In this document: positions 254 through 39,888 of the stretch, one piece after another
Position numbering within the stretch: the stretch's first letter is position 1
Layout of the letters: each line of letters starts with the position of its first letter
From: an uncultured Candidatus Saccharibacteria bacterium
GTDB lineage: Bacteria > Patescibacteriota > Minisyncoccia > RBG-13-40-8-A
Assembly (NCBI GenBank): GCA_965231075.1
Contig: OZ246412.1
Coordinates: 14,224-78,223 of the forward strand
Direction of reading: 5' to 3'
Length of the DNA stretch: 64,000 nucleotides
Position numbers and translations under genes: made by a program
The notes under the pieces: generated by a model
Told to the model about the DNA's origin: nothing
What the model saw: the letters and a program-made list of their open reading frames with translations, nothing else
The model's database searches: none

Positions 254-287
254 CAAAAAGGTCGTTAATTAGTAAATTCACAAAAAC

Positions 288-659
288 ATGTTTTATTCAT
301 TATTTGGTTTGGGATTCGTAGCAGGATTCTTGATCGTTGTGGGAATTCTTTTCCTATTGGTGAATCTGGGCGTAATTAGTGCTGCAGTTTGGGCATGGTG
401 GCCAATTCTTTTGGTTGTCGTTGGAATTTATATTCTGACTCTAAAGAAGAGAAGAAAGAAAATTGCCGTGCACAATATTTTCTCCAAACTTGCTTCGGAC
501 GACAGAATTCAATCGAAACTTAATAAAATCATTGAAACCGTTGATCAGGTTGTTGAAAAAAAGATAGATGAATGGCACGAAGAAGCAACAGGCGAGAAGG
601 AGGAAGAGGAAACAAGAACACATGAAACCCATCACACAAAATCGAAGATCCAGCTATGA
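288..659 (+). CDS. hypothetical membrane protein with charged C-terminal tail
   Basis: ORF track; two predicted TM helices then a K/E-rich tail; its 3' end overlaps the smpB start. Confidence 0.35.
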   Translation: MFYSLFGLGFVAGFLIVVGILFLLVNLGVISAAVWAWWPILLVVVGIYILTLKKRRKKIAVHNIFSKLASDDRIQSKLNKIIETVDQVVEKKIDEWHEEATGEKEEEETRTHETHHTKSKIQL

Positions 660-1059
660 TTATGAAATATTAGAAACTTACGAGGCCGGTTTAGTGCTTT
701 TTGGTTTTGAAGTAAAAGCGATTAAAACCGGCCATGTTAGTTTAACGGGTTCATTTGTGACAACAAAGAACGGAGAGCTTTTTTTGACGAACGCTCTAAT
801 TCCACCTTACCAGCCCCAAAATACGCCAATCGATTATGATCAATCGCGACCGAGAAAACTTTTATTAAATAAATCAGAAATCAACTCTTTAATTGGTAAA
901 TTAAAAGTAAAAGGGTTGACATTAGTGCCAATTCGGTTATATACTAAGAGGAACAGAATAAAGTTGGAATTCGGGGTCGCTAAAGGAAAGAAGAAATCCG
1001 ACAAAAGAGAAGCGATAAAGAAAAGAGATGCAGAAAGAGAGATGCAAAGGGGGCGCTAG
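622..1059 (+). CDS. smpB: SsrA-binding protein SmpB
   Basis: Translation from internal ATG 622 (MKPITQNRRSSYDYEILETYEAGLVL...GSFVTTKNGELFLTNALIPPYQ...) matches SmpB throughout; tmRNA follows immediately. Confidence 0.85.
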   Translation: MKPITQNRRSSYDYEILETYEAGLVLFGFEVKAIKTGHVSLTGSFVTTKNGELFLTNALIPPYQPQNTPIDYDQSRPRKLLLNKSEINSLIGKLKVKGLTLVPIRLYTKRNRIKLEFGVAKGKKKSDKREAIKKRDAEREMQRGR

Positions 1060-4927: not shown

Positions 4928-7723
4928 ATGGAAAAAATTTCAGACATAGAGAAGAAAATATTAGAATTTTGGAAAGAAAATAAAATCTTTGAAAAATCCC
5001 TGATGAAGAAACCCTCCTCCACTAAAACTTCGGCGGGCAAGGATTATGTTTTTTATGATGGTCCGCCATTTGCGACAGGAACACCACATTATGGACACAT
5101 TGTGGCGTCTTTAATGAAAGATATGGTGCCACGCTTTTGGACAATGCGTGGTTACCGAGTCGAAAGAAAATGGGGTTGGGATTGCCATGGCTTACCAATA
5201 GAGAATATTGTTGAACAAGAACTGGGTTTAAAAAATAAAAAAGACATCATATCAATTGGCGTTGATAAATTTAATGAAACAGCCAGAAGTAAGGTTTTAA
5301 AATATGTTGATGAATGGAAGAAAGTAATTGAAAGAATGGGTAGGTGGGCGGACATGGACAACGCCTACAAAACCATGGACTTAAATTACATGGAAAGTAT
5401 CTGGTGGGTATTTAAACAATTGTGGGACAAAGAACTTATATATGAAGGATATAAATCAATGCACATTTGCCCGAGATGCGAAACAACTCTTTCGCAATTC
5501 GAGGTCAGTGATAATTACAAAGACGTTAAAGATCTATCGGTAATAGCGAAATTTGAACTCGTAAACGAACCAGGAACCTATGTTCTGGCATGGACGACTA
5601 CCCCCTGGACGTTAATTGGCAATGTTGCATTGGCAATTGGCGAAAAATTGAACTATATTAAAGTCGAACATAATAATGAACTCTATATTTTAGTCGATCA
5701 AAATGTCGATAAAATTTTTAATAATAAAAAACATGAAATTGTTGAAAAAATTGACCCCAAAGACTTGATTGGTAAAAAATACAAATCATTGTTTGATTAT
5801 TATCTTAACGAGGACCTACCAAATAAAGAAAATCTTTATACGATTGTTTCTGCCGATTTTGTGACCACCGAAGATGGTACGGGCGTCGTGCATATTGCCC
5901 CTGCGTTCGGAGAAGAGGATATGAATTTAGGTAAAGAAAAAAAATTATCTTTTATTCAGCACGTTAAAATGAACGGACAAATCACCGATGAGGCCAAAGA
6001 ATTTGCCGGACTAGAAGTTAAACCAAAAAACGATCCCTCTGCCACCGACAGAAAGGTGATTGAATATTTAAAAAATAAAAATTTACTATTTTTAGAAGAA
6101 GAATATGCTCACAGTTATCCTTATTGTTATCGTTGCGATTCTCCACTTCTAAATTATGCTACTTCTTCATTATTCGTAAACGTAACAGAATTAAAAGACA
6201 AGGCACTTAAACATGCCAAGAGGATAAACTGGACGCCAACACACATAAAAGAAGGGAGGTTTGGTAATTGGTTAGAAGGGGCGCGCGATTGGTCAATTTC
6301 GCGTCAAAGATTTTGGGGTTCAGTAATTCCAATTTGGGTTTGTGATAAGTGCAAGAAGAAAGTGGTGGTTGGTTCAATCAAAGAATTGGAAAAATTGAGC
6401 AGTGTGAAAGTCACAGATTTACACAAACATTTTATTGATAAGATAGAATTTTCGTGTAGTTGCGACGGAAGCATGAAACGAGTTCCCGATGTCTTAGATT
6501 GCTGGTTTGAATCTGGCTCAATGCCATACGCTCAAATGCATTATCCGTTTGAAAATAAAGAAAAATTCGAGAAAAATTTTCCCGCCGAATTTATTGCCGA
6601 AGGAGTTGATCAGACCCGTGCCTGGTTTTACTATATGCATATTTTGTCGACCGCGGTTAAAAACAGCGAAGCATTCAAAAATGTAATTGTGAATGGAATG
6701 GTTTTAGCGGAAGATGGCAAAAAAATGTCGAAACATCTAAACAACTATCCCGACCCGATGGAGGTTTTTGAAAAACACGGGGCTGATGCCGTACGATATT
6801 ACCTAGCCACATCGCCAGTGGTGAAAGCAGATGATTTGTGTTTTTCAGAAAAAGGAGTCGACGAAGTCGTTAAAAAAGTTTTACTGATGATTTTAAATAT
6901 TTTGTCTTTCTATAAACTATCCGCAACCGACACAAAAGAAAGCACAAAAAGCGAGGACATATTAGACAAATGGATTATCTCCAAAACAGAATCTTTGAAA
7001 AAAGAAGTAACCAATGGTTATGAAAATTACGATCTAAACAAGGCCACAAAACCAATTTCTGGATTTATTGATGAATTATCGACCTGGTATGTGCGTAGAT
7101 CCAGGGAAAGATTCAAATCTGAAAACAAAGACGAGGCAGTGCAAACATTAAAATATGTATTATTAGAACTATCTAAAGTAATCGCTCCGGTAGTGCCGTT
7201 TATAGCAGAACACGTATATAAAGAAGTGGGAGGCAACCAAAATAGTGTGCACTTAGAAGATTGGCCAAAAGTGAATGAAAAATTAATCGACGAAAAATTG
7301 GAAGAACAGATGGTGCAAGTGCGAGATATTTGTAGTGCGGGATTACAAAAAAGGGCGGAGGCAAATTTAAAAGTTCGACAACCTTTAGCCAAAATCCAAA
7401 TTCCAAATTATAAATTACAAAAAGAATTACTCGACTTAATCAAAGACGAGGTTAATGTAAAAGAGGTTGTAGCAGACCTAAAAGAGGGAGTGGCACTTGA
7501 TACCACTATCACCGAAGAACTCAAAGCAGAGGGCGCTGTGAGGGATTTTGTGCGCACTATTCAATCAAAACGTAAGGAAATGGGTCTGACGCCGAAGGAC
7601 AAGATTCGGGTAATTTATTCAGAGAATAAGGAAATTGTTGAAAAATACACCGATCAAATCAAGAAACAAGTAATTGCTGAAGAAATTATTTTCGGCAACG
7701 AATTCAAAATAGAAAAAATATAG
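4928..7723 (+). CDS. ileS: isoleucyl-tRNA synthetase
   Basis: PHYGHIVASLMKD (HIGH), KMSKHL (KMSKS), editing-domain and zinc-cysteine clusters; 931 aa. Confidence 0.9.
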   Translation: MEKISDIEKKILEFWKENKIFEKSLMKKPSSTKTSAGKDYVFYDGPPFATGTPHYGHIVASLMKDMVPRFWTMRGYRVERKWGWDCHGLPIENIVEQELGLKNKKDIISIGVDKFNETARSKVLKYVDEWKKVIERMGRWADMDNAYKTMDLNYMESIWWVFKQLWDKELIYEGYKSMHICPRCETTLSQFEVSDNYKDVKDLSVIAKFELVNEPGTYVLAWTTTPWTLIGNVALAIGEKLNYIKVEHNNELYILVDQNVDKIFNNKKHEIVEKIDPKDLIGKKYKSLFDYYLNEDLPNKENLYTIVSADFVTTEDGTGVVHIAPAFGEEDMNLGKEKKLSFIQHVKMNGQITDEAKEFAGLEVKPKNDPSATDRKVIEYLKNKNLLFLEEEYAHSYPYCYRCDSPLLNYATSSLFVNVTELKDKALKHAKRINWTPTHIKEGRFGNWLEGARDWSISRQRFWGSVIPIWVCDKCKKKVVVGSIKELEKLSSVKVTDLHKHFIDKIEFSCSCDGSMKRVPDVLDCWFESGSMPYAQMHYPFENKEKFEKNFPAEFIAEGVDQTRAWFYYMHILSTAVKNSEAFKNVIVNGMVLAEDGKKMSKHLNNYPDPMEVFEKHGADAVRYYLATSPVVKADDLCFSEKGVDEVVKKVLLMILNILSFYKLSATDTKESTKSEDILDKWIISKTESLKKEVTNGYENYDLNKATKPISGFIDELSTWYVRRSRERFKSENKDEAVQTLKYVLLELSKVIAPVVPFIAEHVYKEVGGNQNSVHLEDWPKVNEKLIDEKLEEQMVQVRDICSAGLQKRAEANLKVRQPLAKIQIPNYKLQKELLDLIKDEVNVKEVVADLKEGVALDTTITEELKAEGAVRDFVRTIQSKRKEMGLTPKDKIRVIYSENKEIVEKYTDQIKKQVIAEEIIFGNEFKIEKI

Positions 7724-7765: not shown

Positions 7766-7794
7766 TTGACAAATTTTTGTTTTAGGAGTACAAT
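7766..7794 (+). promoter_or_regulatory. sigma70-type promoter: TTGACA - 17 bp - TACAAT
   Basis: Exact -35 and near-consensus -10 with 17-bp spacer, followed by AAGGAG Shine-Dalgarno at 7803 and ATG at 7815. Confidence 0.5.
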
Positions 7795-7814
7795 ATACAA
7801 CAAGGAGAATAAAA

Positions 7815-8279
7815 ATGAGAAAAAATGCGAAGGTGTCTGTTCTTTTCATCGTCATGGTGGTCGTGTTCGCCGGGTGCATACAACCACCTCAAATCGCAGA
7901 AGCCCAGGCCTTAATTGCCGAGCTCATGAAATTGGATGCAGGCACATATGCCCCCAAAGAATTCATGAAGATTCAAGGCGACATGAACAAGGCTATGGAC
8001 GAAGTCATGGCCCAGGACAAGAAATTTTTCAAGAAATATGGCTACGCCAGAGAGGCATTAGACAAAGTAATATATGAAGCCAGAGACCTTAAAACAAAAA
8101 TGCCCGATAAAAAGTATGACTACGAAAAAAACAATTATCGGGGCAACAATGATGAGCGCAAGATCCTCGGGCAAGCTGTTTTGATTCTGCGAAACGGAGA
8201 CACTCGTCTCGAGGAGCTGATTGCCGACATGATAGAAGACGTCATTTCTTATCGCTTCGGAGGGAGCGAGAAGAAATAG
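7815..8279 (+). CDS. predicted lipoprotein, compositionally atypical (GC-rich) gene
   Basis: Signal peptide with lipobox VFAG-C; ~46% GC coding sequence against a ~32% background; own promoter and terminator. Confidence 0.6.
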   Translation: MRKNAKVSVLFIVMVVVFAGCIQPPQIAEAQALIAELMKLDAGTYAPKEFMKIQGDMNKAMDEVMAQDKKFFKKYGYAREALDKVIYEARDLKTKMPDKKYDYEKNNYRGNNDERKILGQAVLILRNGDTRLEELIADMIEDVISYRFGGSEKK

Positions 8280-8298
8280 TCTGAATCAATTTTTCAGT

Positions 8299-8330
8299 GC
8301 CCCGTGCGCTTGCGCGCGGGGCCTTTTTAT
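8299..8330 (+). terminator. GC-rich hairpin terminator
   Basis: GCCCCGTGCGCTTGCGCGCGGGGC hairpin followed by TTTTT. Confidence 0.55.
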
Positions 8331-8358
8331 TTCTCACAAAATACAATATAATAAAACC

Positions 8359-8829
8359 ATGATTAAGACCGAGGCAATTATACTGAAAACAACCGACCAA
8401 AATGAAACTGGTCGGCTTTTGACGGTTTATTCAGAGAAATTAGGCAAAATCAACGTGCAAGCTAAGGGGGTAAAAAAAATCGAAAGTAAACTGCGTGGAC
8501 ATATTGAGGCCATATCTTATAGTCAATTAATTATCGTAGAAGGAAAAAACTCTTTAATTCTAAAAGACGCGTATTTATTAAATCAATTTCTGAATATCAA
8601 AAAAAGCCTAGAAAAAATAAAAGTCGCCAAACGAATTGCCAATTTAATTGATGAGGCTATGGTTGGACAGGAAAGAGATGAAAGCGTATGGAAATTAATT
8701 TTGGGAACATTTGAAACGCTAAACAATGATGTAAATGTTAAAGATGTTGTAATTGTTTTTGAAAAGAAGTTAATTAATCTTTTGGGCTACGACTCCGAAC
8801 ATATGCGCGAAATAGAAAACTTGTATTAA
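8359..8829 (+). CDS. recO: RecO-like recombination mediator (short form, lacks C-terminal zinc domain)
   Basis: N-terminal OB-fold pattern (EAIILKTTDQNETGRLLTVYSEKLGKINVQAKGVKK...RGHIEAISYSQLIIVEG...) then helical region with ...LINLLGY, resembling RecO. Confidence 0.5.
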   Translation: MIKTEAIILKTTDQNETGRLLTVYSEKLGKINVQAKGVKKIESKLRGHIEAISYSQLIIVEGKNSLILKDAYLLNQFLNIKKSLEKIKVAKRIANLIDEAMVGQERDESVWKLILGTFETLNNDVNVKDVVIVFEKKLINLLGYDSEHMREIENLY

Positions 8830-11981: not shown

Positions 11982-13251
11982 ACCGTTTCAAAAATTTACA
12001 TTTAAAAACGGTCTAAGGTTGGTCACTGTTCCGATGAAAAATACTCAAGCAGTGACTGTTTTAGTTTTAGTTGGGACTGGCTCTAAATACGAAACCAAGG
12101 AGGTTAATGGGATTTCACATTTTTTAGAGCACATGTTTTTTAAGGGGACAAAGAATAAACCGAGCACAAATAAACTAATTGAACCATTAGATAGGATTGG
12201 AGGAAAATATAATGCCTCTACCGATTATGAGATAACTGATTTTTGGGCAAAAGTTGATGCAAAACACTTAGACGTGGCAATTGATTGGATTTCGGATATA
12301 TTTCTGAATTCCAGAATAGATTCGAAAGAAATCGAGAAAGAAAAAGGAGTCATTATAGAGGAGATTAATATGTACTTAGACGAACCAATCAATTATGTTT
12401 CTGACTTGTGGAACAAATTATTGTATGGCGATCAACCAGCGGGATGGTTTATAGCCGGAGAAAAAGAGACGGTGCAAAACATAAAAAGAAATGATTTTAT
12501 AAATTACTTAAAAAATCACTACTCATCTGTTAATACTGTAGTTGTGGTGGCCGGGAAAATAGATAACATTAAAAAATTAAAGCTTAATATTCAACAAAAA
12601 TTCCAAAAGATAAATAGAAAAAGCCCGCAACCAAGAGCAAAAGTTTTTTACTCGCAACAGAAGCCACAAGCATTGATATACTACAAGAAAACAGACCAAA
12701 CTCACTTGTGTCTTGGCAATAGAGCATACAATATGTTTCATCCAGACAGGTATATTCTGGATATTATAAATACAATTTTAAGTGGAGGATTTACATCAAG
12801 GATGTGGACAAATATACGCCAAAAAAGAGGACTAGCCTATTATGTTTATACTTATGGAAACGCGGATCTGGATACGGGGTATATATTAACCAAGGCCGGA
12901 GTTAATAACGATAAAGTTGACGAAGCGATAAAAGAAATTTTAAACCAATACAATATTATTAAAAATAAAAAAGTTTCCGCACAAGAACTAAGAAAAGCTA
13001 AAGACTATATAAAGGGAAGAGCAATTTTGGGCATGGAATCATCTGATGCTCTGGCTTCTTTTTACGGCCATCAGGAATTATTTGAAAATAAAATTTTGAC
13101 CCTAGAAGAGAAACTTGCTAAAATAGAAGCAGTAACGGCCGAAGACGTACAAAGAGTGGCGAAAGACATATTTAGACCAGAAAAATTAAATTTAGCATTA
13201 ATTGGACCATTTAAAAATAAGGCGAAATTTCAACGCCTTCTAAAATTATGA
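11974..13251 (+). CDS. M16 family zinc peptidase (pitrilysin-like)
   Basis: HFLEHMFFKGT (inverted zincin HxxEH motif) near N-terminus; two-domain M16 length. Confidence 0.75.
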   Translation: MSKPFQKFTFKNGLRLVTVPMKNTQAVTVLVLVGTGSKYETKEVNGISHFLEHMFFKGTKNKPSTNKLIEPLDRIGGKYNASTDYEITDFWAKVDAKHLDVAIDWISDIFLNSRIDSKEIEKEKGVIIEEINMYLDEPINYVSDLWNKLLYGDQPAGWFIAGEKETVQNIKRNDFINYLKNHYSSVNTVVVVAGKIDNIKKLKLNIQQKFQKINRKSPQPRAKVFYSQQKPQALIYYKKTDQTHLCLGNRAYNMFHPDRYILDIINTILSGGFTSRMWTNIRQKRGLAYYVYTYGNADLDTGYILTKAGVNNDKVDEAIKEILNQYNIIKNKKVSAQELRKAKDYIKGRAILGMESSDALASFYGHQELFENKILTLEEKLAKIEAVTAEDVQRVAKDIFRPEKLNLALIGPFKNKAKFQRLLKL

Positions 13252-15423: not shown

Positions 15424-16912
15424 ATTTTATATCACAACTACATTGCCATATGTGAATGCTGAGCCACATATTGGATTTGCGCTAGAAATTGTGCAGGCAG
15501 ATGTTATTGCTCGATATCGCGCCCTACAAGGCGACGAGGTGTTTTTTAATACCGGGACCGACGAGCATGGATTGAAAATCTATCAAAAGGCGTTAGAAGA
15601 AAAAAAAGACCCACAAGCATATTGTGATGAGTATGCAGCGAAATTTGATTTATTAAAAACGAAATTAAATCTTTCTTACAATAATTTTATTCGCACCACT
15701 GACAAACATCATATTGAGGCGTGCCAAGAATTCTGGAAAAAATGTGAAAAAAATGGCGATATTTACAAAAAGAATTACAAAACCAAATATTGCGTTGGTT
15801 GTGAATTAGAAAAAACCGATTCCGAATTAGTTGATGGCAAATGCCCGATTCATCCCAATCGCGAACTAGAAATCATCGAAGAAGAAAATTATTTCTTTAA
15901 GTTTTCTAAATACCAGCAACCACTTTTGGATTTTTACGACAAAAATAAAGGTTTTGTTATTCCTGCGCATCGTCAAAAAGAAATTTATAATTTTGTAAAA
16001 AATGGTTTGCAAGATTTTAGTATTTCCCGACTCAAAACAAAAATGCCATGGGGCGTACCCGTACCGGGGGACAGTGACCACATAATGTATGTTTGGTTTG
16101 ATGCCCTTATCAACTATATTTCCTGTCTAGGTTGGCCCAAAGACGAGAAAAAGTTCAAAGAATTCTGGCCGGGACTGCAAGTTGCCGGAAAAGATAATTT
16201 AAGACAACAAACTGCAATGTGGCAAGCCATGCTTTTATCGGCTAAGCTTCCGTTATCGAAACAGGTGTTTATTCATGGATTTATTACTTTAGGTGGACAA
16301 AAAATTAGTAAATCTTCTAGTCCAAGCCCAAGTCCATCGCCATCAAGCGAGGTTTCATTATCAAAGAATATTTTACCAAGTCCAATTGAGTTGGTTGATA
16401 AATACGGCATTGATGCGGTGAGATACTATTTATTGCGCGGAATTCCGTCTTCCGAAGATGGCGATTTTTCTATTGAACGATTTGAAGAATTATACAATTC
16501 TGATCTAGCAAATGGATTAGGAAATTTGGTTGCGAGAGTATTGGGATTAACAGAGAAACATAATCTATTTAAAAGCATTTTTATAAATGATGTCGACGGC
16601 AAATACAAAAGAGACGTGGACAACCTGAAAGCAGCAGTCAGCGATTGCATTAACGGGTTTGGATTTTCGGAATTTTTAGAAATCGTTTGGTCTGGTATTC
16701 GTGTTTTGGGTGACACATACATTGATAGTCAAAAACCATGGGAATTAGCTGGAGAAGATGAGATTAAATTAAAACAAGTTTTAACTAATTTACTTTATTT
16801 AATTTCCGAAATTGCCGAATTAATTACACCGTTTTTACCTGAAACGAGTGAAAAAATAAAAAATCAATTAAAATCCGGTAAATCAGAAATATTGTTTCCC
16901 AGAATTTCATAA
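15413..16912 (+). CDS. metG: methionyl-tRNA synthetase
   Basis: PYVNAEPHIGF (HIGH variant), zinc knuckle CVGCELEKTD...CPIHPN, KISKS (KMSKS) followed by an unusual SSPSPSPSPSSEVS insertion. Confidence 0.9.
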   Translation: MKNKFYITTTLPYVNAEPHIGFALEIVQADVIARYRALQGDEVFFNTGTDEHGLKIYQKALEEKKDPQAYCDEYAAKFDLLKTKLNLSYNNFIRTTDKHHIEACQEFWKKCEKNGDIYKKNYKTKYCVGCELEKTDSELVDGKCPIHPNRELEIIEEENYFFKFSKYQQPLLDFYDKNKGFVIPAHRQKEIYNFVKNGLQDFSISRLKTKMPWGVPVPGDSDHIMYVWFDALINYISCLGWPKDEKKFKEFWPGLQVAGKDNLRQQTAMWQAMLLSAKLPLSKQVFIHGFITLGGQKISKSSSPSPSPSPSSEVSLSKNILPSPIELVDKYGIDAVRYYLLRGIPSSEDGDFSIERFEELYNSDLANGLGNLVARVLGLTEKHNLFKSIFINDVDGKYKRDVDNLKAAVSDCINGFGFSEFLEIVWSGIRVLGDTYIDSQKPWELAGEDEIKLKQVLTNLLYLISEIAELITPFLPETSEKIKNQLKSGKSEILFPRIS

Positions 16913-16923
16913 AAGTTATAACA

Positions 16924-16951
16924 TTGACGTAATAAATTTAATAGTATATAG
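16924..16951 (+). promoter_or_regulatory. sigma70-type promoter: TTGACG - 16 bp - TATAGT
   Basis: Near-consensus hexamers upstream of the GC-rich gene at 17001; AGGGAG Shine-Dalgarno at ~16990. Confidence 0.45.
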
Positions 16952-16978
16952 TAAAATCAGTTCCTTTGGAACTGATTT
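16952..16978. promoter_or_regulatory. perfect 12-3-12 inverted repeat AAAATCAGTTCC-TTT-GGAACTGATTTT at the predicted transcription start (candidate operator, or metG terminator)
   Basis: Perfect palindrome immediately downstream of the -10 element; not followed by a U-tract. Confidence 0.45.
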
Positions 16979-17000
16979 TAAATCTAATAGGGAGTGTGCA

Positions 17001-18026
17001 ATGAAAAAATCAGTTTGTGTCGTTCTTTTTATGTTCATGTTTTTGTCGCTATCTTTTTCGGCGTTCGGCCAGCAGGTCGAATACAAAAAGATCTATCGAC
17101 TCGGCGTGGCTCCGCTGGAAAAAAACGGGGTCAAGACACTGGAAGAGCTCGAAGCGCTCATCGTCAAAAAGATTGTGGTCATCGATCTATTATTGAGCGG
17201 GCGAAAAGAGCTTGTCGAAGAATTCTATCGACAATTTCCCGAGGCAAGGGTCGAAGAGATTTCTTTTGACAAAAATGACCACGTGCGAATTATTTCGATG
17301 TCCTGGGAGAACTGGGACAAGAAGCCCAAGGTAACGGTACCTGTCGAATGGGCTGGAGAAGGAATCGTTGAGGCATATATTTTTAAAATCGATTATATGC
17401 ACATCGGAAAGTCTTATTGGTTCCTGATTCCCAAGAAGTGTGGGAACGTTTCTCTATGGAAGATCGAAGATCTTGAGATTCCGATTAGGAAAATCGAAGA
17501 GAAGCCGGTTGTCGAGTACCCATCTCGGTCAAACCCCGAGATCGAAACGGTTCACAATCCGGAACCCAAGCCCGTTGTCGAGACGTCCAAAGAAAAGGAT
17601 GATACGGATTATTTCGCAGATTTGGCCGGAGGAATTTTCAAAAGCTGCTACAAGGAGTATATTATCCTCCGGGCTGGTTTCGCGAAAAAAATCAGCGAAA
17701 AATTCGAACTGACCTTCTTGGGAGGAATCGGCCTTCCTCTTGATTTCCAAACCGGATATCCCGGAACCGAGGAATGGAAAGTGGTGTTTATGGGCGACAC
17801 AAAGTTGATATACAGACCATCTTCATTCTTTATCGGTGTAGGCGCCGGAATGTCGTCTGCCGTCAAGGCAGGCAATACCAAGCAACTGGAAGGAATTTGC
17901 ACGACAGGAATCAGTTCAGGCAAGATCGATTTATTTGTTGAAGTGCGTCTTCCTATGCAGAAAGACAAGAGCTTCAAGAACAACTACAAGATATTTGCCG
18001 GAATAGGAGTACACTGGGGGCGATGA
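17001..18026 (+). CDS. secreted hypothetical protein, compositionally atypical (GC-rich) gene
   Basis: Signal peptide MKKSVCVVLFMFMFLSLSFSAFGQQ; ~48% GC; flanked by its own promoter and hairpin terminator. Confidence 0.6.
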   Translation: MKKSVCVVLFMFMFLSLSFSAFGQQVEYKKIYRLGVAPLEKNGVKTLEELEALIVKKIVVIDLLLSGRKELVEEFYRQFPEARVEEISFDKNDHVRIISMSWENWDKKPKVTVPVEWAGEGIVEAYIFKIDYMHIGKSYWFLIPKKCGNVSLWKIEDLEIPIRKIEEKPVVEYPSRSNPEIETVHNPEPKPVVETSKEKDDTDYFADLAGGIFKSCYKEYIILRAGFAKKISEKFELTFLGGIGLPLDFQTGYPGTEEWKVVFMGDTKLIYRPSSFFIGVGAGMSSAVKAGNTKQLEGICTTGISSGKIDLFVEVRLPMQKDKSFKNNYKIFAGIGVHWGR

Positions 18027-18040
18027 GCCCCCTTTTTTAT
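18015..18040 (+). terminator. hairpin terminator overlapping the stop codon
   Basis: GGGGGCGATGAGCCCCC followed by TTTTTT. Confidence 0.55.
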
Positions 18041-18872: not shown

Positions 18873-21356
18873 ATGGAATATAATCCTCAAGAGATTGAAA
18901 AAAAGTGGCAAAAAGAATGGGAAAAACTTGGTCTATACGAGGCCAAAGATTTTGATAAAAAACCGAAACAATACATTCTGGTTGAATTTCCATATCCTTC
19001 TGGAGACGGACTTCATGTTGGTCACGCCAGAAGTTATTCTGCGCTCGACGCTATGGCACGTAAAAAGAGAATGCAAGGATACAATGTTTTATTTCCTATT
19101 GGTTACGATGCTTTTGGACTTCCCACGGAAAACTATGCCATTAAAACTGGTATTCATCCGATTGAGGTAACTAAAAAAAATACCGCAATTTTTAGAGAAC
19201 AACTAAAAAGCCTCGGCCTATCATTTGACTGGTCCCGAGAAATAAATACTACTGACCCCGAATATTACAAATGGACGCAGTGGATATTTTTACAATTTTT
19301 TAAGAAAGGATTGGCCTACCAACAAGAAATGCCGATAAATTGGTGTCCAAAATGCAAAACCGGACTAGCTAACGAAGAGGTTGTAAACGGAAAATGTGAA
19401 CGCTGTGGCGCTCAAACCGAAAAACGTAACAAAAAACAATGGTTATTAAAAATTACCGCCTACGCAGACAGATTGATTGACGATTTAAAATTAGTTAATT
19501 TTCCCGATAGGATAAAAAATCAGCAAATAAATTGGATTGGCAGATCAGAAGGAACTAATATAAAATTCAAGATTGAAAACGAGGAACTAGAAGTATTTAC
19601 AACCAGAATAGATACAATTTTTGGCGTAACCGCTTTAGTTTTAGCGCCAGAACATGAATTGGTATCAAAGCTTAAAGATCAAAGCTCAAACGTTAAAGAA
19701 ATTGAAGATTATATCTCGCAAACCAGGAAAAAATCAGAAATTGAGCGCATGGATTTCGCAAAAGAAAAAACCGGTGCGGAATTAAAAGGAGTTTATGCGA
19801 TTAATCCTTTAAATGATGAAAAAATCCCAATTTGGATTGGCGATTATGTAATCGCTACCTATGGGGGAGGGGCAGTGATGATGGTACCCGCACACGACGG
19901 ACGAGATTATGAATTTGCTAAAAAATACGGAATTAAAATTAAAAAAGTTATAATTCCTAAGGCAATAATAAGTCGTTATATGAATGCTGAACAAATTGCC
20001 GCTGGCGGACAAACAGAATTACGGCCAGTGGTGGATTGTTTTACGGAATATGGCGAACTAATTAATTCTGGCGAATTTAATGGCTTAGATTCAGACAAGG
20101 CGATCAAGGAAATCACAAAATGGTTAGAAAAGAAGAAATTAGGCAAAAAACAAGTCAATTATCACTTACGAGACTGGGTGTTTACGCGCCAACATTATTG
20201 GGGTGAACCAATTCCGATTATTCATTGCGAAAAATGTGGAGCGGTGCCAGTAAACGAAAAAGATTTACCAATAGAACTTCCGTATGTCGAGAAATACGAA
20301 CCAACCGATACCGGAGAGTCGCCATTATCAGCGATCGATGAGTGGGTGAACACGAAATGTCCAAAATGTGGAGGCAAAGCAAAGCGAGAAACCGACACAA
20401 TGCCAAATTGGGCAGGATCCAATTGGTACTACCTCGCATATTTGATGCGAGGAATTTCCAATTTCCAGTTTCCAATTTCCAAATACCAAGATGCATTTAA
20501 ATACTGGATGCCAGTGGATTTATATAACGGTGGAATGGAGCATGTCACACTTCATCTTTTATATTCGAGATTTGTCTACAAATTTTTATATGATATTGGT
20601 GTTGTCCCTGGTCCCGAACCATATCAAAGACGATGTGCACATGGCATGGTTTTGGCGTCTGATGGTCAGAAAATGTCTAAATCTCGGGGCAATGTTATTA
20701 ACCCCGACGAAATTGTTAAAAAATATGGTGCCGATACGATTCGTCTTTACGAAATGTTTATGGGGCCATATGAAGATGAAATTTCTTGGAGCACAGAAAG
20801 CTTAGAGGGCTGTGCAAGGTTTTTAAAAAAGATTTGGAACTTATTTGCCAATGATAAAAAATTTGCCAAAGAAGCTTCGAAAGAATTGATTCAGAAATTA
20901 CATTATACGATAAAAAAAGTTGGTGACGATTTAGATAACATGAAATTCAACACCGCAATTTCAAGTATGATGGAATTAATTAATATGTGGTCTATTGAGG
21001 GGAGCGTAATGGCAAAAGAAGATGCAGAAAATTTCTTGAAGATTTTAGCACCGTTTGCACCACATATAACAGAAGAATTATTTCAAAAAATCCAAAATTC
21101 AGAATCCAAAATTCAAAGCGTCTTTGAAGCGGAGTGGCCGGAATATGATGAGAAATTAATCAAGAAAGATAAGATTGATTTAATTATTCAAATCAATGGC
21201 AAAGTCAGAGACAAAATTGAGGTAAGAGCAGACATCTCCGAAAAAGAGGCCAAGGAATTAGTTTTGTCGAACGAAAAGATAAAAACCTGGCTTAACAATC
21301 AAGAACCAAAGAAAATCATTTTCGTGAAAAACAAATTAATAAATATTGTAATATGA
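18873..21356 (+). CDS. leuS: leucyl-tRNA synthetase
   Basis: HVGHARSYSALDAMARKKRMQGYNVLFPIGYDAFGLP, KMSKSRGN, editing domain; 827 aa. Confidence 0.9.
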   Translation: MEYNPQEIEKKWQKEWEKLGLYEAKDFDKKPKQYILVEFPYPSGDGLHVGHARSYSALDAMARKKRMQGYNVLFPIGYDAFGLPTENYAIKTGIHPIEVTKKNTAIFREQLKSLGLSFDWSREINTTDPEYYKWTQWIFLQFFKKGLAYQQEMPINWCPKCKTGLANEEVVNGKCERCGAQTEKRNKKQWLLKITAYADRLIDDLKLVNFPDRIKNQQINWIGRSEGTNIKFKIENEELEVFTTRIDTIFGVTALVLAPEHELVSKLKDQSSNVKEIEDYISQTRKKSEIERMDFAKEKTGAELKGVYAINPLNDEKIPIWIGDYVIATYGGGAVMMVPAHDGRDYEFAKKYGIKIKKVIIPKAIISRYMNAEQIAAGGQTELRPVVDCFTEYGELINSGEFNGLDSDKAIKEITKWLEKKKLGKKQVNYHLRDWVFTRQHYWGEPIPIIHCEKCGAVPVNEKDLPIELPYVEKYEPTDTGESPLSAIDEWVNTKCPKCGGKAKRETDTMPNWAGSNWYYLAYLMRGISNFQFPISKYQDAFKYWMPVDLYNGGMEHVTLHLLYSRFVYKFLYDIGVVPGPEPYQRRCAHGMVLASDGQKMSKSRGNVINPDEIVKKYGADTIRLYEMFMGPYEDEISWSTESLEGCARFLKKIWNLFANDKKFAKEASKELIQKLHYTIKKVGDDLDNMKFNTAISSMMELINMWSIEGSVMAKEDAENFLKILAPFAPHITEELFQKIQNSESKIQSVFEAEWPEYDEKLIKKDKIDLIIQINGKVRDKIEVRADISEKEAKELVLSNEKIKTWLNNQEPKKIIFVKNKLINIVI

Positions 21357-21952
21357 AGAACATAGCGGTGTTGATATCGGGCAATGGGACGAATTTGCAA
21401 GCGATAATTGATGAGGCGAAAGATGGAAAAATAAACGGCAAGATTGTTGCCGTAATTTCGAATAAATCCGATGCTTATGGACTAGAGAGGGCGAAACAGG
21501 CCGACATTCCAACATATTTTATTGACCACAAAGGAATCACGCGCGAAGAACATGAACAAAAAATAATTGATACTTTAGAAAAGGCGAAAGTTGATTTGGT
21601 GGTTTTAGCGGGATATATGCGCGTGGTAACACCGTTGTTTGTAAACAAATACAAACATAAATTAATCAATATTCACCCCGCACTACTTCCAGCATTTCCC
21701 GGAACCGATGGTTATGGCGATACATTTAATTATGGTTGTAAGGTTGGTGGATGCACAGTGCATTTTGTTGACGAGGGGGTTGATACCGGGCCGATTATTG
21801 TTCAAAAAGTTAATGAAATTAAAGAAAACGATACATTAGAAAGTTTTAAACAACGCGGATTAGAAATTGAGCATCAGGCACTTCCCGAGGCAGTAAGATT
21901 ATTCTGCGAAGACAAACTACAAATTGAAGGAAGAAAGGTTAAAATTTTATGA
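21353..21952 (+). CDS. purN: phosphoribosylglycinamide formyltransferase-like formyl transferase
   Basis: IAVLISGNGTNLQAIID...NIHPALLPAFPG...HFVDEGVDTGPII is the PurN/formyltransferase N-domain signature. Confidence 0.75.
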   Translation: MKNIAVLISGNGTNLQAIIDEAKDGKINGKIVAVISNKSDAYGLERAKQADIPTYFIDHKGITREEHEQKIIDTLEKAKVDLVVLAGYMRVVTPLFVNKYKHKLINIHPALLPAFPGTDGYGDTFNYGCKVGGCTVHFVDEGVDTGPIIVQKVNEIKENDTLESFKQRGLEIEHQALPEAVRLFCEDKLQIEGRKVKIL

Positions 21953-22527: not shown

Positions 22528-22548
22528 CCCCACGGACAAGGGGCTATT
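22526..22548. terminator. bidirectional hairpin terminator between convergent genes
   Basis: GCCCCACGGACAAGGGGC hairpin with T-runs on both sides. Confidence 0.45.
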
Positions 22549-22675
22549 TGAGTTGACTCGGTGAAAATAACGACAAGAAAGTGCTGATTAAACAGTAAAT
22601 CCAAAAAGAGTAAATGACTAACAGCAAAACAGAGAAAATTATACCCGCAAGGAAATTGCGGATTGTTTTTATCAT
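22544..22675 (-). CDS. small (43 aa) single-pass membrane protein
   Basis: Strong GGAGGAGG Shine-Dalgarno 5 nt upstream of ATG (minus strand); hydrophobic core IIFSVLLLVIYSFWIYCLISTFLSLF. The longer track ORF 22544..22783 is an antisense-tRNA artifact in its N-terminal part. Confidence 0.4.
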   Translation of the reverse strand: MIKTIRNFLAGIIFSVLLLVIYSFWIYCLISTFLSLFSPSQLK

Positions 22676-22695
22676 CTCCTCCTCCTTTTTATAAA

Positions 22696-22779
22696 GATCG
22701 ACAAGTGCCCGGGGGGAGAGTCGAACTCCCATGACCTTGCGGTCACACGATTTTGAGTCGTGCGCGTCTGCCAGTTCCG
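22696..22779 (-). tRNA. tRNA-Leu (anticodon CAA)
   Basis: Minus-strand cloverleaf GCCCAGG...: 7-bp acceptor stem (one A-C mismatch), anticodon stem CACGA/TCGTG, loop CUCAAAA, long variable arm GACCGCAAGGTCA, T-arm GGGAGTTCGACTCTCCC; CCA not encoded. Confidence 0.85.
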
Positions 22780-22809
22780 CCACCTGGGCATGATTTTAAG
22801 TTATCACAA

Positions 22810-24858
22810 TCAATCAGTTTTTTCAAATGCACAATCCTTGTTGCTACATTTTATTTTTCTGCTTCGAGTTGTAACAAGTAGTGAATTGCATTTTGGACAA
22901 AGTTCGCCAGTCGGTCTATCCCACAAAGCAAATTTACAGTCTGGGTATTTGCTGCAACTGAAAAATATTTTTCCTCTGCGTGTTTTTCTTTCCAATATCT
23001 TTCCGTCTTTACATTCGGGACATTTTACGTCAGTTGAATTTTCAATATGTTTCGTGTTTTTACATTTAGGAAAATTTGAACAAGCAATGAATTTTCCAAA
23101 TCTTCCTGTTTTAATTACCATTGGCGATCCACACTTCTCACAAACCTGATCAGTTTTCTCGTCTACAACCTCTTTTTTAACAATGTCTGTATATTTTTGT
23201 TTAACATTTTTTTCAAACGGTTTATAAAAACTTTCAATCACGGGTACCCATTCTTTTTTTCCGTCAGCAATTTCATCAAGTTCATTTTCCATATTCGCCG
23301 TAAAATCAATATCCACAATTTCGGGGAAGTGTTCGACCAAAAGTCCATTTACTAAAACTCCAATTTCACTAGGATAAAGATATTTTGCGGTTTTGGTGAC
23401 GTATCCACGCTTTTGAATTGTTTCCATGGTTGGGGCATAAGTTGATGGTCTACCAATGCCATGTTCTTCAAGCGCTTTAATTAAAGTTGCTTCGGTAAAT
23501 GGTGCCGGCGCCTGGGTGAAATGTTGCAGGGAATTTAATTTCAATAAATCTAAAATTTCATTAACTTTAAGTTCTGGTAAAATGGTTTCTTCGGTTTTTG
23601 ATGACCAAACACTCAAAAATCCATCAAATTTAATAATATTTCCATTGGCCTTAAATCCATAACCATTGCCAGCGCTAATATCAATAGAGGTTGAATCGAA
23701 CACAGCAGAATTCATTTGAGAGGCAATTGTTCTGCGCCAAATAAGATTATATAAAGCAAATTGATTTTTATTTAAATAACTTTTTACGTCTTCGGGTTTA
23801 TATTCGGGGAAAGTTGGTCTAATTGCTTCATGTGCTTCTTGCGCGCCTTTGCTTTTGGTTTTATAGAAATTAGGCTGCAAGGGTAAATATTTTTTACCAA
23901 AATCTTTTTCAATTAATTCTCTAGTTTTAGATATTGCTGAGGTTGCCAAATTCAAAGAGTCGGTTCTCATGTATGTGATAAGACCGACTGGTTTTTTATT
24001 TTCCAAAGGAAGCCCTTCGTATAATTGTTGGGCAATAAACATTGTTTGTTTTGCAGAAAATCTTAATTTGCGCGAGGCCTCTTGTTGTAATGTACTGGTT
24101 GTGAATGGGGGAAAAGGATTTCTTTTAACTTCTTTTTTCTCGATGTTTTCAATTTTATACTCGGCATTGGTTAGGTCGTTGATGATATCTTCGGCCTGTT
24201 TCTGGTTTTTAATCTCAAGCTTGTCAACGGTTTTGTTGTTGATTTTATTTAAAGTCGCAACGAAATTTGGGTTGTGTTTAAATTCTGCTTCAATGGTGTG
24301 ATATTCTTCTGGCTTAAACTGATCAATTTCTTTTTGCTTTTCAACCACCAGGCGGACAGCAACCGACTGAACTCTTCCCGCCGAAAGCCCTCTGGCAACC
24401 TTTTTCCACAACAAAGGAGAAAGTTTATAACCAACCAATCTGTCCAGGATTCTTCGTGCTTGTTGTGCATCAACAAGATTTAAATCAATCTCACGCGGAT
24501 TTTTTAAAGCGTCCTCGATGGCTTGTTTGGTAATTTCATGAAAAACAATTCTTTTAGGGTTTTTTAATTTTAATGCTTCGGTTAAATGCCAAGCAATTGC
24601 TTCTCCTTCGCGGTCTTCGTCAGTTGCAAGAATTACTTCGTCTGATTTTTTAACTTTTTCTTTTAGTGCAGTAACATTCTTTCTTGCCTTAGGAACAATA
24701 ATATATTGAGGTTCAAAACCGTTTTCCGTATCAATTGCTAACTTGCTCTTGGGCAAGTCTCGAACATGACCAAAAGAGGATTCAACCATGAATCCCTTGC
24801 CTAAAAATTGTTTAATTGTCTTTGCTTTTGTTGGCGACTCAACAATAATTAAATTCAT
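22810..24858 (-). CDS. topA: DNA topoisomerase I
   Basis: MNLIIVESPTKAKTIKQFLGKGFMVESSFGHVRDLP (TOPRIM), catalytic Tyr region, three C-terminal Cys4 zinc ribbons. Confidence 0.9.
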   Translation of the reverse strand: MNLIIVESPTKAKTIKQFLGKGFMVESSFGHVRDLPKSKLAIDTENGFEPQYIIVPKARKNVTALKEKVKKSDEVILATDEDREGEAIAWHLTEALKLKNPKRIVFHEITKQAIEDALKNPREIDLNLVDAQQARRILDRLVGYKLSPLLWKKVARGLSAGRVQSVAVRLVVEKQKEIDQFKPEEYHTIEAEFKHNPNFVATLNKINNKTVDKLEIKNQKQAEDIINDLTNAEYKIENIEKKEVKRNPFPPFTTSTLQQEASRKLRFSAKQTMFIAQQLYEGLPLENKKPVGLITYMRTDSLNLATSAISKTRELIEKDFGKKYLPLQPNFYKTKSKGAQEAHEAIRPTFPEYKPEDVKSYLNKNQFALYNLIWRRTIASQMNSAVFDSTSIDISAGNGYGFKANGNIIKFDGFLSVWSSKTEETILPELKVNEILDLLKLNSLQHFTQAPAPFTEATLIKALEEHGIGRPSTYAPTMETIQKRGYVTKTAKYLYPSEIGVLVNGLLVEHFPEIVDIDFTANMENELDEIADGKKEWVPVIESFYKPFEKNVKQKYTDIVKKEVVDEKTDQVCEKCGSPMVIKTGRFGKFIACSNFPKCKNTKHIENSTDVKCPECKDGKILERKTRRGKIFFSCSKYPDCKFALWDRPTGELCPKCNSLLVTTRSRKIKCSNKDCAFEKTD

Positions 24859-25731: not shown

Positions 25732-25760
25732 TTGACAAACTTACAGCAATATGCTATACT
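25732..25760 (+). promoter_or_regulatory. sigma70-type promoter TTGACA - 17 bp - TATACT pointing into the pth-dprA intergenic gap
   Basis: Exact -35 hexamer and TATACT -10 on the plus strand, divergent from dprA. Confidence 0.4.
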
Positions 25761-25796
25761 TACTGTAGAATAAAAATATATAAATATTTCGTGTTT

Positions 25797-25917: not shown

Positions 25918-25926
25918 GAACAAGAA

Positions 25927-35895: not shown

Positions 35896-36594
35896 ATGAA
35901 AATAGGGGGTTTGCAAAAACTAACTCTCGTTGATTATCCAAACAAAATTGCAGCAACAGTGTTTTTAACTGGCTGCAATTTTAAGTGTGGCTTTTGTCAC
36001 AATTTCGACATTGTTGATCCCGACCTTGCGTCGGGACGAGTTCCAATTACCGAAAAAGAATTTTTTGACTTTTTAAAATCAAAACAAGGACTAATTGACG
36101 GAATCTGTGTTACCGGCGGAGAACCCACGATCAATGCTGACTTGATTAATTTTATAAAAAGAATAAAAGAATTAAATTTCTCAATTAAATTAGACACAAA
36201 TGGGAGCAATCCATCGATGCTAAAAGAGCTGATCGATCAGAAATTATTAGATTTCGTTGCCATGGATATTAAAACGAGTCCAGAAAAATATACAAAAGCG
36301 GTTGGCACAGAAATCAATATAGACAATATCAAGAAAAGCGTAGAAATAATCAGAAAATCAAAAATTGATTACGAATTTAGAACCACAGTTGTGCCGGGGA
36401 TAGTTGACAGAGAAGACGTTGAAAAACTTGGCAAATGGTTGAAGGGTGCGAAAAAATTCTCTTTACAGCAGTTCAGAAATCAAAAAGTTTTGAATAAAGA
36501 ATTCGAAAAAATCGTACCGTATTGGGACGATACATTAAAAGAGTTTAAAAAGATATTAGAAAAATATATTAAAAACGTCGAACTAAGAATTTGA
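35896..36594 (+). CDS. nrdG: anaerobic RNR activating protein (radical SAM)
   Basis: CNFKCGFCHN (CxxxCxxC) near the N-terminus; adjacent to nrdD. Confidence 0.85.
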   Translation: MKIGGLQKLTLVDYPNKIAATVFLTGCNFKCGFCHNFDIVDPDLASGRVPITEKEFFDFLKSKQGLIDGICVTGGEPTINADLINFIKRIKELNFSIKLDTNGSNPSMLKELIDQKLLDFVAMDIKTSPEKYTKAVGTEINIDNIKKSVEIIRKSKIDYEFRTTVVPGIVDREDVEKLGKWLKGAKKFSLQQFRNQKVLNKEFEKIVPYWDDTLKEFKKILEKYIKNVELRI

Positions 36595-36618
36595 CTTTAT
36601 AAGTAGAAAGAGTATATT
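36591..36618 (+). promoter_or_regulatory. sigma70-type promoter TTGACT - 16 bp - TATATT
   Basis: Overlaps the nrdG stop codon; AAGGAGG Shine-Dalgarno at 36625 and ATG at 36636. Confidence 0.35.
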
Positions 36619-36635: not shown

Positions 36636-36845
36636 ATGAACATTTTAAAAAATAAAGTTTGGACGTGTTCGGGGTGCAATTGTCAGAACCCGGAAAGTCG
36701 TGCCACGTGTTTTAATTGTGGCACGCTGAAAGTGCTACTGGTCACCAAAGAGCCGGTGCTCGACTTTGGTCCTGATTACTCCGGCGATGGTCACCAAGAA
36801 GAAATTCAAATGCAACGAGATCATGGCCTAGACCCGATTGAATGA
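36636..36845 (+). CDS. small RanBP2-type zinc-finger protein, compositionally atypical (GC-rich)
   Basis: WTCSGCNCQNPESRATCFNCG fits W-x-C-x2-C-x3-N-x6-C-x2-C exactly; ~50% GC; own promoter, SD and terminator. Confidence 0.55.
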   Translation: MNILKNKVWTCSGCNCQNPESRATCFNCGTLKVLLVTKEPVLDFGPDYSGDGHQEEIQMQRDHGLDPIE

Positions 36846-36865: not shown

Positions 36866-36893
36866 GAGGGACTCTCGTGTCCCTCTTTTTTTA
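36866..36893 (+). terminator. GC hairpin terminator
   Basis: GAGGGACTCTCGTGTCCCTC followed by TTTTTTT. Confidence 0.55.
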
Positions 36894-39111: not shown

Positions 39112-39114
39112 GTG

Positions 39115-39143
39115 TTGACAGATAGAGCACTAAATGTTACAAT
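39115..39143 (+). promoter_or_regulatory. sigma70 promoter TTGACA - 17 bp - TACAAT; CTTGCGCAAG palindrome (39152-39161) between the -10 and the SD
   Basis: Exact consensus hexamers; AAGGAG at 39159; ATG at 39172. Confidence 0.45.
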
Positions 39144-39171
39144 TACAATATCTTGCGCAAGGAGAAAAATA

Positions 39172-39546
39172 ATGCCGCAGGTATTCATGATCCTTGGATC
39201 CCAGGTTGTAAAACGCCTGGACCACGAAATCATCAACGAGATCGGAACCACTTTGATCTCATTGGTGGAGCAATTCTTCAAAATCGAGGGCAGAAACGAC
39301 GTGGCGTTTACGGCCGTTTCGGCTATCGCCACGATCAACGAGGCTCCGATTCAAGTTGAAATCCGGTATACTGCCGGCAGGGACGAGTATGGGCAAGGAA
39401 AGCCGTTCGATCCCTCTGAAGAAGAGCAAGAGCTTTTGGCCAGCCTTATTATGGGGGTTGTTCAGGGCTTAACTCTCGGCAAATACAAGGTTTCGGTGTG
39501 GTGCAAGCCATACCACAACTCTGTGTTTAAGGACAAGCCAGTGTAA
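39172..39546 (+). CDS. hypothetical cytoplasmic protein, compositionally atypical (GC-rich)
   Basis: Start taken at ATG 39172 after AAGGAG (the track ORF begins at 39112 inside the promoter); ~50% GC; no signal peptide. Confidence 0.5.
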   Translation: MPQVFMILGSQVVKRLDHEIINEIGTTLISLVEQFFKIEGRNDVAFTAVSAIATINEAPIQVEIRYTAGRDEYGQGKPFDPSEEEQELLASLIMGVVQGLTLGKYKVSVWCKPYHNSVFKDKPV

Positions 39547-39560
39547 ATCAGGGAGTGGCA

Positions 39561-39595
39561 AGGGGTTGGGACGTGTCCCAGCCCCTATTTTATTT
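39561..39595 (+). terminator. GC hairpin terminator
   Basis: AGGGGTTGGGACGTGTCCCAGCCCCT followed by ATTTTATTT. Confidence 0.5.
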
Positions 39596-39630
39596 GATTT
39601 TAGTTGAGATTAGATATAAAATGAAGGTAT

Positions 39631-39885: not shown

Positions 39886-39888
39886 TTT

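Follow-up and report, generated by a model that had tools for sequence, protein, structure and literature searches.

The window analysed here, a stretch of 64,000 nucleotides from an uncultured Candidatus Saccharibacteria bacterium (contig OZ246412.1, positions 14,224 to 78,223), carries four single-gene units, termed C1 to C4, whose coding sequences are much richer in GC than the rest of the DNA. The first of them, C1, is the main subject of this analysis. It consists of an open reading frame (ORF) on the forward strand, 7815-8279, which encodes 154 amino acids (aa) and starts MRKNAKVSVLFIVMVVVFAGC. The gene is flanked by ileS (4928-7723) on one side and, on the other, by a gene coding for a RecO_N/RecO_C protein (8359-8829; RecO_N Pfam match, 1.5e-14).

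The signal peptide of the C1 protein ends in a lipobox, MRKNAKVSVLFIVMVVVFAG-C21 (VFAG-C21), in which Cys21 and the preceding Gly are invariant across three C1 orthologues, and a lipobox-like motif is found in 124 of 149 distant relatives. C1 is hence a predicted lipoprotein precursor, with putative acylation and cleavage by Lgt and LspA. Searches of Pfam, NCBIfam and PDB sequences returned no significant match for C1, C2 or C3. Comparison of C1 with the Pfam family DUF4398 (PF14346) gave 13.5 bits (E=0.1), short of the gathering threshold of 27.9 bits, and this likeness is best taken as a resemblance only. The AlphaFold model of C1 is all-helical but poor, with a predicted local distance difference test score (pLDDT) of 59 and a predicted template modelling score (pTM) of 0.45.

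Upstream of C1 lies a promoter-like site made of sigma-70-type hexamers, with a spacing inside the usual 16-18 nt and predicted activity. The orthologous loci preserve it, as TTGACA-17-TACAAT in L005 and TTGACA-17-TATCAT in L003. In the window, 7 promoter-like sites scoring at least 11/12 were observed, vs 2.3 +/- 1.5 expected, and these include the sites of C1 and C4 and those upstream of tmRNA and of the rpsL operon. Downstream, the terminator hairpin GCCCCGTGCGCTTGCGCGCGGGGC (8299-8322) precedes a T-run; nine of its 10 pairs are G-C, and its folding energy is -22.6 kcal/mol (z=-5.0).

The GC content of the window is 36.0%. A native reference set of 53 of its genes has a GC content at third codon positions (GC3) of 0.307 +/- 0.029, with a maximum of 0.356, while C1 reaches 0.561 (z=+8.8, binomial P=5e-11). 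C2, C3 and C4 are similarly outliers, with z values of 8.0, 5.2 and 11.5, respectively (Table 1). As the non-coding DNA upstream of the units is AT-rich (GC 0.25-0.33), the excess is confined to the coding sequences and terminators. In the cassettes, C/(C+T) is 0.56 in two-fold pyrimidine codons, vs 0.29-0.33; G/(A+G) is 0.46 in two-fold purine codons, vs 0.20-0.26; and the GC content of four-fold codons is 0.60, vs 0.30-0.38. Leucine codons move from TTA to CTN and arginine codons from AGA to CGN. Ribosomal-protein and EF-Tu genes have the lowest GC3 in the window (~0.29; EF-Tu 0.233) and favour TTA, AGA and NNA/T codons, whereas the cassettes favour NNC/G. The codon excess of the cassettes is a signature of whole composition, unlike the translational codon bias of ribosomal genes. 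Two further GC-rich ORFs, at 22544-22783 (-) and 42154-42531 (+), are spurious, since they overlie tRNA-Leu (22705-22789) and tRNA-Pro (42249-42320).

An earlier note on this DNA had described a 154-aa lipoprotein gene between ileS and a recO-like gene, and the ORF, the lipobox and the RecO Pfam match confirm it. The signals reported there for C1, a TTGACA-17-TACAAT promoter, an AAGGAG site and a GCCCCG...CGGGGC terminator, are all present, and the four cassettes it listed (7815, 17001, 36636 and 39172) all proved to be GC3 outliers with signals of their own. Its contrast of ~46% GC with a ~32% background holds for the outlier (GC 0.452) and not for the background, which is higher. The 'near-identical' architecture ascribed to C1 and C4 is correct as far as the consensus elements are concerned, these being identical, but the spacers and 5' untranslated regions (5' UTRs) are unrelated. 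Uniform codon usage, named in the note as a refutation, was not seen: comparison with the ribosomal genes reveals an excess in every codon class.

The closest relatives of the window's methionyl-tRNA synthetase (MetRS) belong to Patescibacteria metagenome-assembled genomes (81-55% identity). Among 5.8 billion (5.8e9) proteins, only three close relatives of C1 were found, all in the ileS-X-recO slot of related Patescibacteria. Two proteins encoded in this slot, P0002 and P0003, are 75% and 50-53% identical to C1; their genes have a GC3 of 0.53 and 0.61, vs a background of ~0.30, and keep the promoter, Shine-Dalgarno site and terminator. The presence of C1 is patchy. The window, L005 and L003 have it; in L012 and L007, ileS overlaps recO (ATGA) with no cassette between them; and in L006 the C1 coding sequence is gone, with an AT-rich 519-aa ORF occupying the slot. 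In L006 (~2560-2640), 5' of recO, a hairpin GCCCCG...CGGGGC-TTTTTATTTTTTACAAAATACAATA matches the C1 terminator and its downstream region. As these sequences persist, the slot was once occupied and remodelled later, and the hairpin is read as a molecular fossil of the C1 cassette. L012, the closest relative by MetRS (81%, tblastn), encodes at 6-2054 an IleS 54% identical to that of the window, vs 75-91% for neighbouring genes; ileS appears to have been replaced in this lineage, an event which may explain the missing C1. As for insertion scars at C1, only 9-nt repeats were found (e.g., TACAATATA at 7789 and 8342), consistent with chance or with promoter -10 boxes, and no terminal inverted repeats.

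Beyond these orthologues, a profile of the three C1 sequences retrieved 328 relatives, 52 of them at E<=1e-10. They are mostly ~200-aa lipoproteins, with a match covering C1 residues 1-105/125, and the distant ones score 17-25 bits against DUF4398, again under the threshold. The nearest wider relative, P0018, is 45% identical to C1 over residues 9-99 (92 aa; BLASTP E=8e-23); its gene has a GC3 of 0.69 and lies on a contig of 51% GC. Residues ~105-154 of C1 (the last ~55) match nothing beyond the Patescibacteria trio. The relatives that could be placed come from genomes of GC 0.46-0.65 and GC3 0.5-0.9 which are not Patescibacteria, and the other ~170 Patescibacteria loci examined encode no further member of the family. 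A TonB-dependent receptor, which marks diderm bacteria, is encoded on the contig of one relative. The shared domain was used for a neighbour-joining tree, with relatives devoid of taxonomic labels; here the trio is monophyletic in 69 of 100 bootstraps and P0018 stands closest to it, P0003 being equally close to P0018 and to its own C1 orthologues.

On three independent contigs, none from Patescibacteria, the family gene stands immediately 5' of YkuD L,D-transpeptidase genes (L173 8001-9572, L177 355-2743 and L178 2079-4424). Two YkuD genes follow the lipoprotein gene in L177 and L178, and one together with a 215-aa ORF in L173, where the lipoprotein occurs as tandem paralogues. The C-terminal residue is Lys or Arg in 72 of 149 family members. 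By analogy, this suggests a peptidoglycan-tethered role, similar to that of Braun's lipoprotein, for the ~200-aa YkuD-linked proteins. No YkuD-like sequence was found within the 64-kb window, where the neighbours of C1 are ileS and recO.

The mode of inheritance of C1 can be read from its divergence. Comparison of the window with L003 gives identities of 78-91% for flanking proteins (59% and 68% for two less conserved neighbours) and of 45-62% for their four-fold sites (0.37-0.39 in these two neighbours), while C1 shows 50% protein identity and 59% identity at four-fold sites. At four-fold sites, C1 (identity 0.56-0.59) is as conserved as its flanks, and the comparison of the window with L005 agrees. 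A synonymous distance equal to that of the flanks, together with a raised amino-acid substitution rate, fits vertical descent. The polarity of third-position changes on the window and L005 branches was determined by parsimony, with L003 to polarise them and ileS as control. C1 has undergone 24 GC→AT changes to 15 AT→GC, vs 27:52 in ileS (odds ratio 3.1, p=0.006). The raw C1 count is ambiguous when taken alone; in the ileS control, parsimony proves biased toward AT→GC changes, and the information lies solely in how the two genes differ. This difference shows that C1 is losing GC relative to native DNA. A rough relaxation estimate, assuming a chance identity of ~0.26, indicates that the GC3 excess fell to about two-thirds per lineage; this rough calculation suggests an ancestral C1 GC3 near 0.7, which matches that of P0018.

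Taken together, we consider it probable, though with clear room for doubt, that C1 goes back to a single, ancient horizontal transfer that brought in part of a diderm-type, YkuD-linked lipoprotein gene, followed by vertical descent, fast evolution and partial amelioration. The ancestor of a small group of Patescibacteria would have gained the gene from a GC-richer and probably diderm bacterium possessing ~200-aa helical lipoproteins encoded beside YkuD genes. Of the donor family, only the signal peptide, the lipobox and the first helical domain would have stayed recognisable. The gene would have settled at the ileS/recO junction, where both genes overlap in other relatives, and would run as a monocistronic unit, driven by a sigma-70 promoter close to consensus and by a strong ribosome-binding site, its GC-rich hairpin terminator presumably insulating recO. 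Its protein would then have changed at a far higher rate than neighbouring ones, a common trait of exposed envelope proteins, while its third codon positions would have drifted slowly from a donor-like (~0.7) to a host-like (~0.3) GC content. Composition, signals, patchy synteny, homology and the direction of substitution are the observations from which we infer the donor type, strong expression, surface location and time course of C1. Selection on GC3, or recombination, may have played some role in its history. Horizontal transfer into Patescibacteria, with other phyla included among the donors, is documented (PMC12455944).

C2 and C3 follow the pattern of C1, and C4 is a similar unit within a variable block. 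Each of the three has a promoter-like site, a Shine-Dalgarno site and a terminator hairpin among the strongest of the window (Table 1). The four proteins are unrelated: a helical lipoprotein (C1), a 341-aa secreted protein (C2), a zinc-ribbon peptide (C3) and a tautomerase-fold protein (C4).

Table 1. Positions of the features of cassettes C1 to C4 in the window
Feature	Position	Strand	Remarks
C1 promoter-like site	7766..7794	+	TTGACA 7766-7771, 17-nt spacer, TACAAT 7789-7794; 11/12
C1 Shine-Dalgarno AAGGAG	7802..7807	+	7 nt 5' of ATG; AAGGAGAAT kept in L003, L005
C1 coding sequence, predicted lipoprotein precursor	7815..8279	+	GC 0.452, GC3 0.561
C1 predicted signal peptide and lipobox	7815..7877	+	from sequence; Cys invariant in orthologues
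C1 intrinsic-terminator-like hairpin GCCCCGTGCGC-TTGC-GCGCGGGGC and T-run	8299..8332	+	kept in L003, L005
C2 promoter-like site TTGACG-17-TATAGT	16924..16952	+	kept in L086, L012
C2 5'-UTR hairpin	16952..16980	+	perfect 13-bp stem, 3-nt loop; -15.4 kcal/mol, z=-3.6
C2 coding sequence	17001..18026	+	341-aa secreted protein, N-terminal signal peptide, GC3 0.538
C2 terminator GGGGGCGATGAGCCCCC and T-run	18016..18040	+	overlaps stop codon
C3 promoter-like site TTGACT-16-TATATT	36591..36618	+	kept in L123, L093
C3 coding sequence	36636..36845	+	69-aa zinc-ribbon (CxxC...CxxC) peptide, GC3 0.457
C3 terminator GAGGGAC-loop-GTCCCTC and T-run	36866..36893	+	
C4 promoter-like site TTGACA-17-TACAAT, extended TG	39115..39143	+	11/12
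C4 coding sequence	39172..39546	+	124-aa tautomerase/MIF-fold protein, GC3 0.640
C4 terminator AGGGGTTGGGAC-GTGT-CCCAGCCCCT and T-rich tail	39561..39596	+	

Homologues of C2, 31-50% identical and with a GC3 of 0.39-0.48, occupy the metG-X-tatD slot of L012, L006 and L086, whereas metG abuts tatD in L007 and L008. The promoter and the 5'-UTR hairpin of C2 are kept in L012 and L086, not in L006. This hairpin stands directly 3' of the -10 box and is conserved in L086 and L012 despite 35-50% coding identity; it may be a regulatory or stabilising stem-loop. C3, which scores 23.4 bits against Pfam Zn_ribbon_RanBP, under the threshold of 27, is shared only with L123 and L093, the two closest relatives (~35-50% identity depending on the method; GC3 0.49 and 0.45), where NrdD is 92% identical. 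Most of the remaining relatives have nrdG abutting the gene that follows. Protein identity is 33-50% for C2 and C3, vs 72-92% for their flanks. Their four-fold identities are no lower than those of the flanks, which are near saturation (normalised identity 0.14-0.46) and leave the comparison little power.

For C4, the structure model (pLDDT 86.8) retrieves CHMI, MIF, cis-CaaD, MSAD and 4-OT in Foldseek with a probability of 1.0 and TM-scores of 0.55-0.66, and the Met-Pro-Gln start is invariant in 9 of 9 family members. The N-terminal Pro1 and the modelled beta-alpha-beta fold place C4 in the tautomerase superfamily, with a putative enzyme activity. The family is tiny (nine members), occurs in unrelated contexts and has mostly a high GC3 (0.58, 0.69); one homologue adjoins a restriction-modification/ParB/AbiEii island. 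The block formed by C4, an 84-aa gene and a 427-aa gene (39112-41172) is missing from L123 and L093, where mscL comes straight after a 283-aa gene. The two genes beside C4 have a native GC3 (~0.33-0.35), so the variable genes are not all GC-rich.

The earlier note had offered two origins for the cassettes. That they are acquired genes is supported for C1 as regards foreign origin, its family residing in GC-richer genomes outside the Patescibacteria, but not as regards recency, as orthologues of 50-75% identity share the same GC3 excess. Nothing shows that C1 brought its own promoter, and this promoter and the 5' UTR are AT-rich and host-like. The other origin, a family of very highly expressed lineage-specific genes, finds no support in that form: the four proteins are unrelated and their codons differ from those of the ribosomal-protein and EF-Tu genes, although high expression of the cassettes is plausible from their signals. 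The note took orthologues sharing both the context and the GC skew as the mark of highly expressed natives. These do exist for C1 to C3, but they do not turn the genes into simple natives: the slots are empty in other close relatives, and C1 is losing GC relative to the control.

Several observations nonetheless weigh against an ancient transfer of C1 with later amelioration, or against its extension to the other units. The polarity test comprises 39 C1 changes and a near-saturated outgroup, and is significant only relative to its control. GC3 is still 0.53-0.61 in all three lineages despite a substantial turnover at four-fold sites; neutral decay then needs an ancestral value of ~0.7, which is plausible. 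The GC content at second codon positions (GC2) and the amino-acid composition of C1 (FYMINK 0.39) already look native while GC3 is still atypical, a combination unexpected under pure mutational amelioration which leaves room for selection or biased conversion acting on GC3. The taxonomy of the donor-type contigs is deduced from gene content and GC, and no donor family emerged for C2, C3 or C4. The C2 tree groups the window with L086 and L012 with L006, while MetRS and TatD put the window nearest L012, and simple vertical descent may thus not hold for every cassette. Finally, one C4 homologue, L090, has a GC3 near the native value (0.36).

Part of this evidence could equally be expected of native genes expressed at very high levels, in which selection maintains the GC-rich coding sequence, for instance for mRNA stability or for the translation of abundant envelope proteins. 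The 11/12 promoters of C1 and C4 fall in one class with the tmRNA and rpsL-operon promoters, Shine-Dalgarno sites and terminators are strong, and the GC3 excess is retained by orthologues of 35-75% identity as well as by C4 homologues with unrelated surroundings; the native-looking GC2 and amino acids beside an atypical GC3 point the same way. We regard this explanation as unlikely: EF-Tu (GC3 0.233) and the ribosomal proteins (~0.29), for which the highest expression would be expected, are devoid of such bias and rely on other codons, changes in C1 run on balance from GC to AT when set against the ileS control, GC3 is spread widely inside families (0.39-0.54 for C2, 0.36-0.69 for C4), and the C1 family is rooted in GC-rich genomes. 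It is likewise rather improbable that the slots are recombination hot spots, in which diversifying selection on exposed proteins drives allele exchange and GC-biased conversion, or import from GC-richer Patescibacteria, raises GC3. In its favour, the C2 tree is at variance with MetRS and TatD even as promoter and 5'-UTR hairpin stay conserved, the cassettes diverge 3-5x faster than their flanks, slot occupancy varies, and some Patescibacteria relatives (L009-L011) do have a GC3 of 0.45-0.56. Against it, C1 has the same synonymous divergence as its flanks and forms a monophyletic trio. The four-fold identities of C2 and C3 are again not below those of the flanks, albeit at near-saturated sites with low power, and gene conversion in bacteria, for which effects of a few percent on GC3 have been reported, appears too weak to account for +25 points.

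A promoter, one gene and a terminator of odd GC content between genes that are adjacent in relatives is the anatomy of a moron, and the restriction-modification/ParB/AbiEii island beside one C4 homologue also evokes recent insertion by a mobile element or phage, as a moron or an integron-like cassette. This reading is very unlikely and already largely refuted: IMG/VR holds no relatives of C1, C2 or C4 and PHROG no match, housekeeping genes lie on both sides, direct or inverted repeats around the unit do not go beyond chance-level 9-mers, and the same slot holds orthologues of only 50% identity, which makes the insertion old. A diversity-generating retroelement was considered and dropped, as the whole coding sequence is atypical rather than a 3' variable region and the surroundings of the cassettes show no reverse transcriptase. 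The sharp jump in composition within a metagenome-assembled genome might suggest a chimeric contig built or binned from two organisms. Such an artefact is scarcely credible given that two sequencing runs independently yielded the identical locus, which occurs in a 626-kb contig too, that diverged orthologous loci from other samples share its structure, and that the GC-rich stretch is exactly one ORF between AT-rich regulatory DNA. A more speculative proposal, which we hold to be quite improbable, is that GC richness is maintained and marks a class of autonomous, strongly transcribed and fast-diversifying envelope cassettes at fixed slots between housekeeping genes. On this view, C1 would imitate, as a captured protein, the L,D-transpeptidase-linked, Braun-lipoprotein-like envelope lipoprotein of a diderm host and serve at the episymbiont-host interface. 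Here, C1 might be tethered to host peptidoglycan via its conserved C-terminal Lys.

Unrelated and very GC-rich single genes exist in other AT-rich Patescibacteria, at 16866-17606 (-) of L006 and at 286-1032 (-) and 12196-12639 (-) of L057. The former is a 246-aa lipoprotein-like ORF with a GC content of 0.58 and a GC3 of 0.72 in a genome of 35% GC, which has a 12/12 promoter and a strong terminator; the latter two, of 248 and 147 aa, have a GC3 of ~0.66. In a survey of ~170 relatives' loci, many small GC3 outliers were spurious, lying over RNA genes or on the opposite strand; the convincing ones are these three ORFs and one in L087. The islet pattern thus recurs with different cargo, and literature searches turned up no account of this particular pattern.

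A further element lies at 25732-25930 (+), between the dprA-like gene (24855-25721, -) and pth (25927-26397, -). Here an 11/12 promoter, TTGACA-17-TATACT with TG, precedes a rod-like long hairpin of ~135 nt (-62.6 kcal/mol, z=-7.5) which has no Rfam match even at E<=1. The same arrangement of promoter and sequence is found in L006 (~21116-21358). We regard it as a candidate for a small RNA that has escaped annotation.

With their tiny genomes, Patescibacteria rely on host bacteria, and their exposed proteins are largely uncharacterised. The C1 locus illustrates how a streamlined genome may gain envelope genes: a foreign single gene at a junction of essential genes, kept as an insulated, long-lived and fast-evolving unit. 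C1 is also a lead for work on the symbiont-host interface, its relatives being tied elsewhere to peptidoglycan L,D-transpeptidases, a connection which is speculative but testable. In AT-rich streamlined genomes, a GC3-outlier ORF with a consensus promoter and a strong terminator offers a cheap and specific flag for accessory surface genes.

The organisation of C1 is reminiscent of phage morons, which are autonomous promoter-gene-terminator units of deviant GC between conserved genes. Like them, C1 is one gene with its own promoter and terminator and a deviant GC content, between genes that are adjacent or overlapping in relatives. Unlike them, it resides on a cellular chromosome, between aminoacyl-tRNA synthetase and recombination genes, with no prophage and no viral homologues. 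With the YkuD-linked lipoproteins, C1 shares the signal peptide, the lipobox Cys and the first helical domain, including the motif AQDKKFFKK(F/Y)G.A(K/R)E, as well as a Lys at or near the C-terminus. It differs from them in length (154 vs ~200 aa), in lacking the Ala-rich C-terminal helices, in its trio-specific last 55 residues and in having no adjacent YkuD gene. Similarly, C1 resembles Braun's lipoprotein (Lpp), which L,D-transpeptidases link to peptidoglycan, as a small helical lipoprotein ending in Lys whose distant relatives are encoded beside L,D-transpeptidases. C1 is longer than Lpp and, by its poor model, not an obvious coiled coil, and the comparison implies no claim of sequence homology; Patescibacteria have no known outer membrane. 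A parallel in setting is offered by the individually transferred islets of Patescibacteria (PMC12455944), which C1 matches as a single gene of atypical composition and patchy distribution in a streamlined genome. It departs from those islets (PMC12455944) by the age of the transfer, by homology limited to the N-terminus, by its own near-consensus promoter and terminator and by the presence of three more units within 64 kb. The proposed mechanism, horizontal transfer followed by amelioration, is a textbook one, and C1 represents a clear case of an already known type of event.

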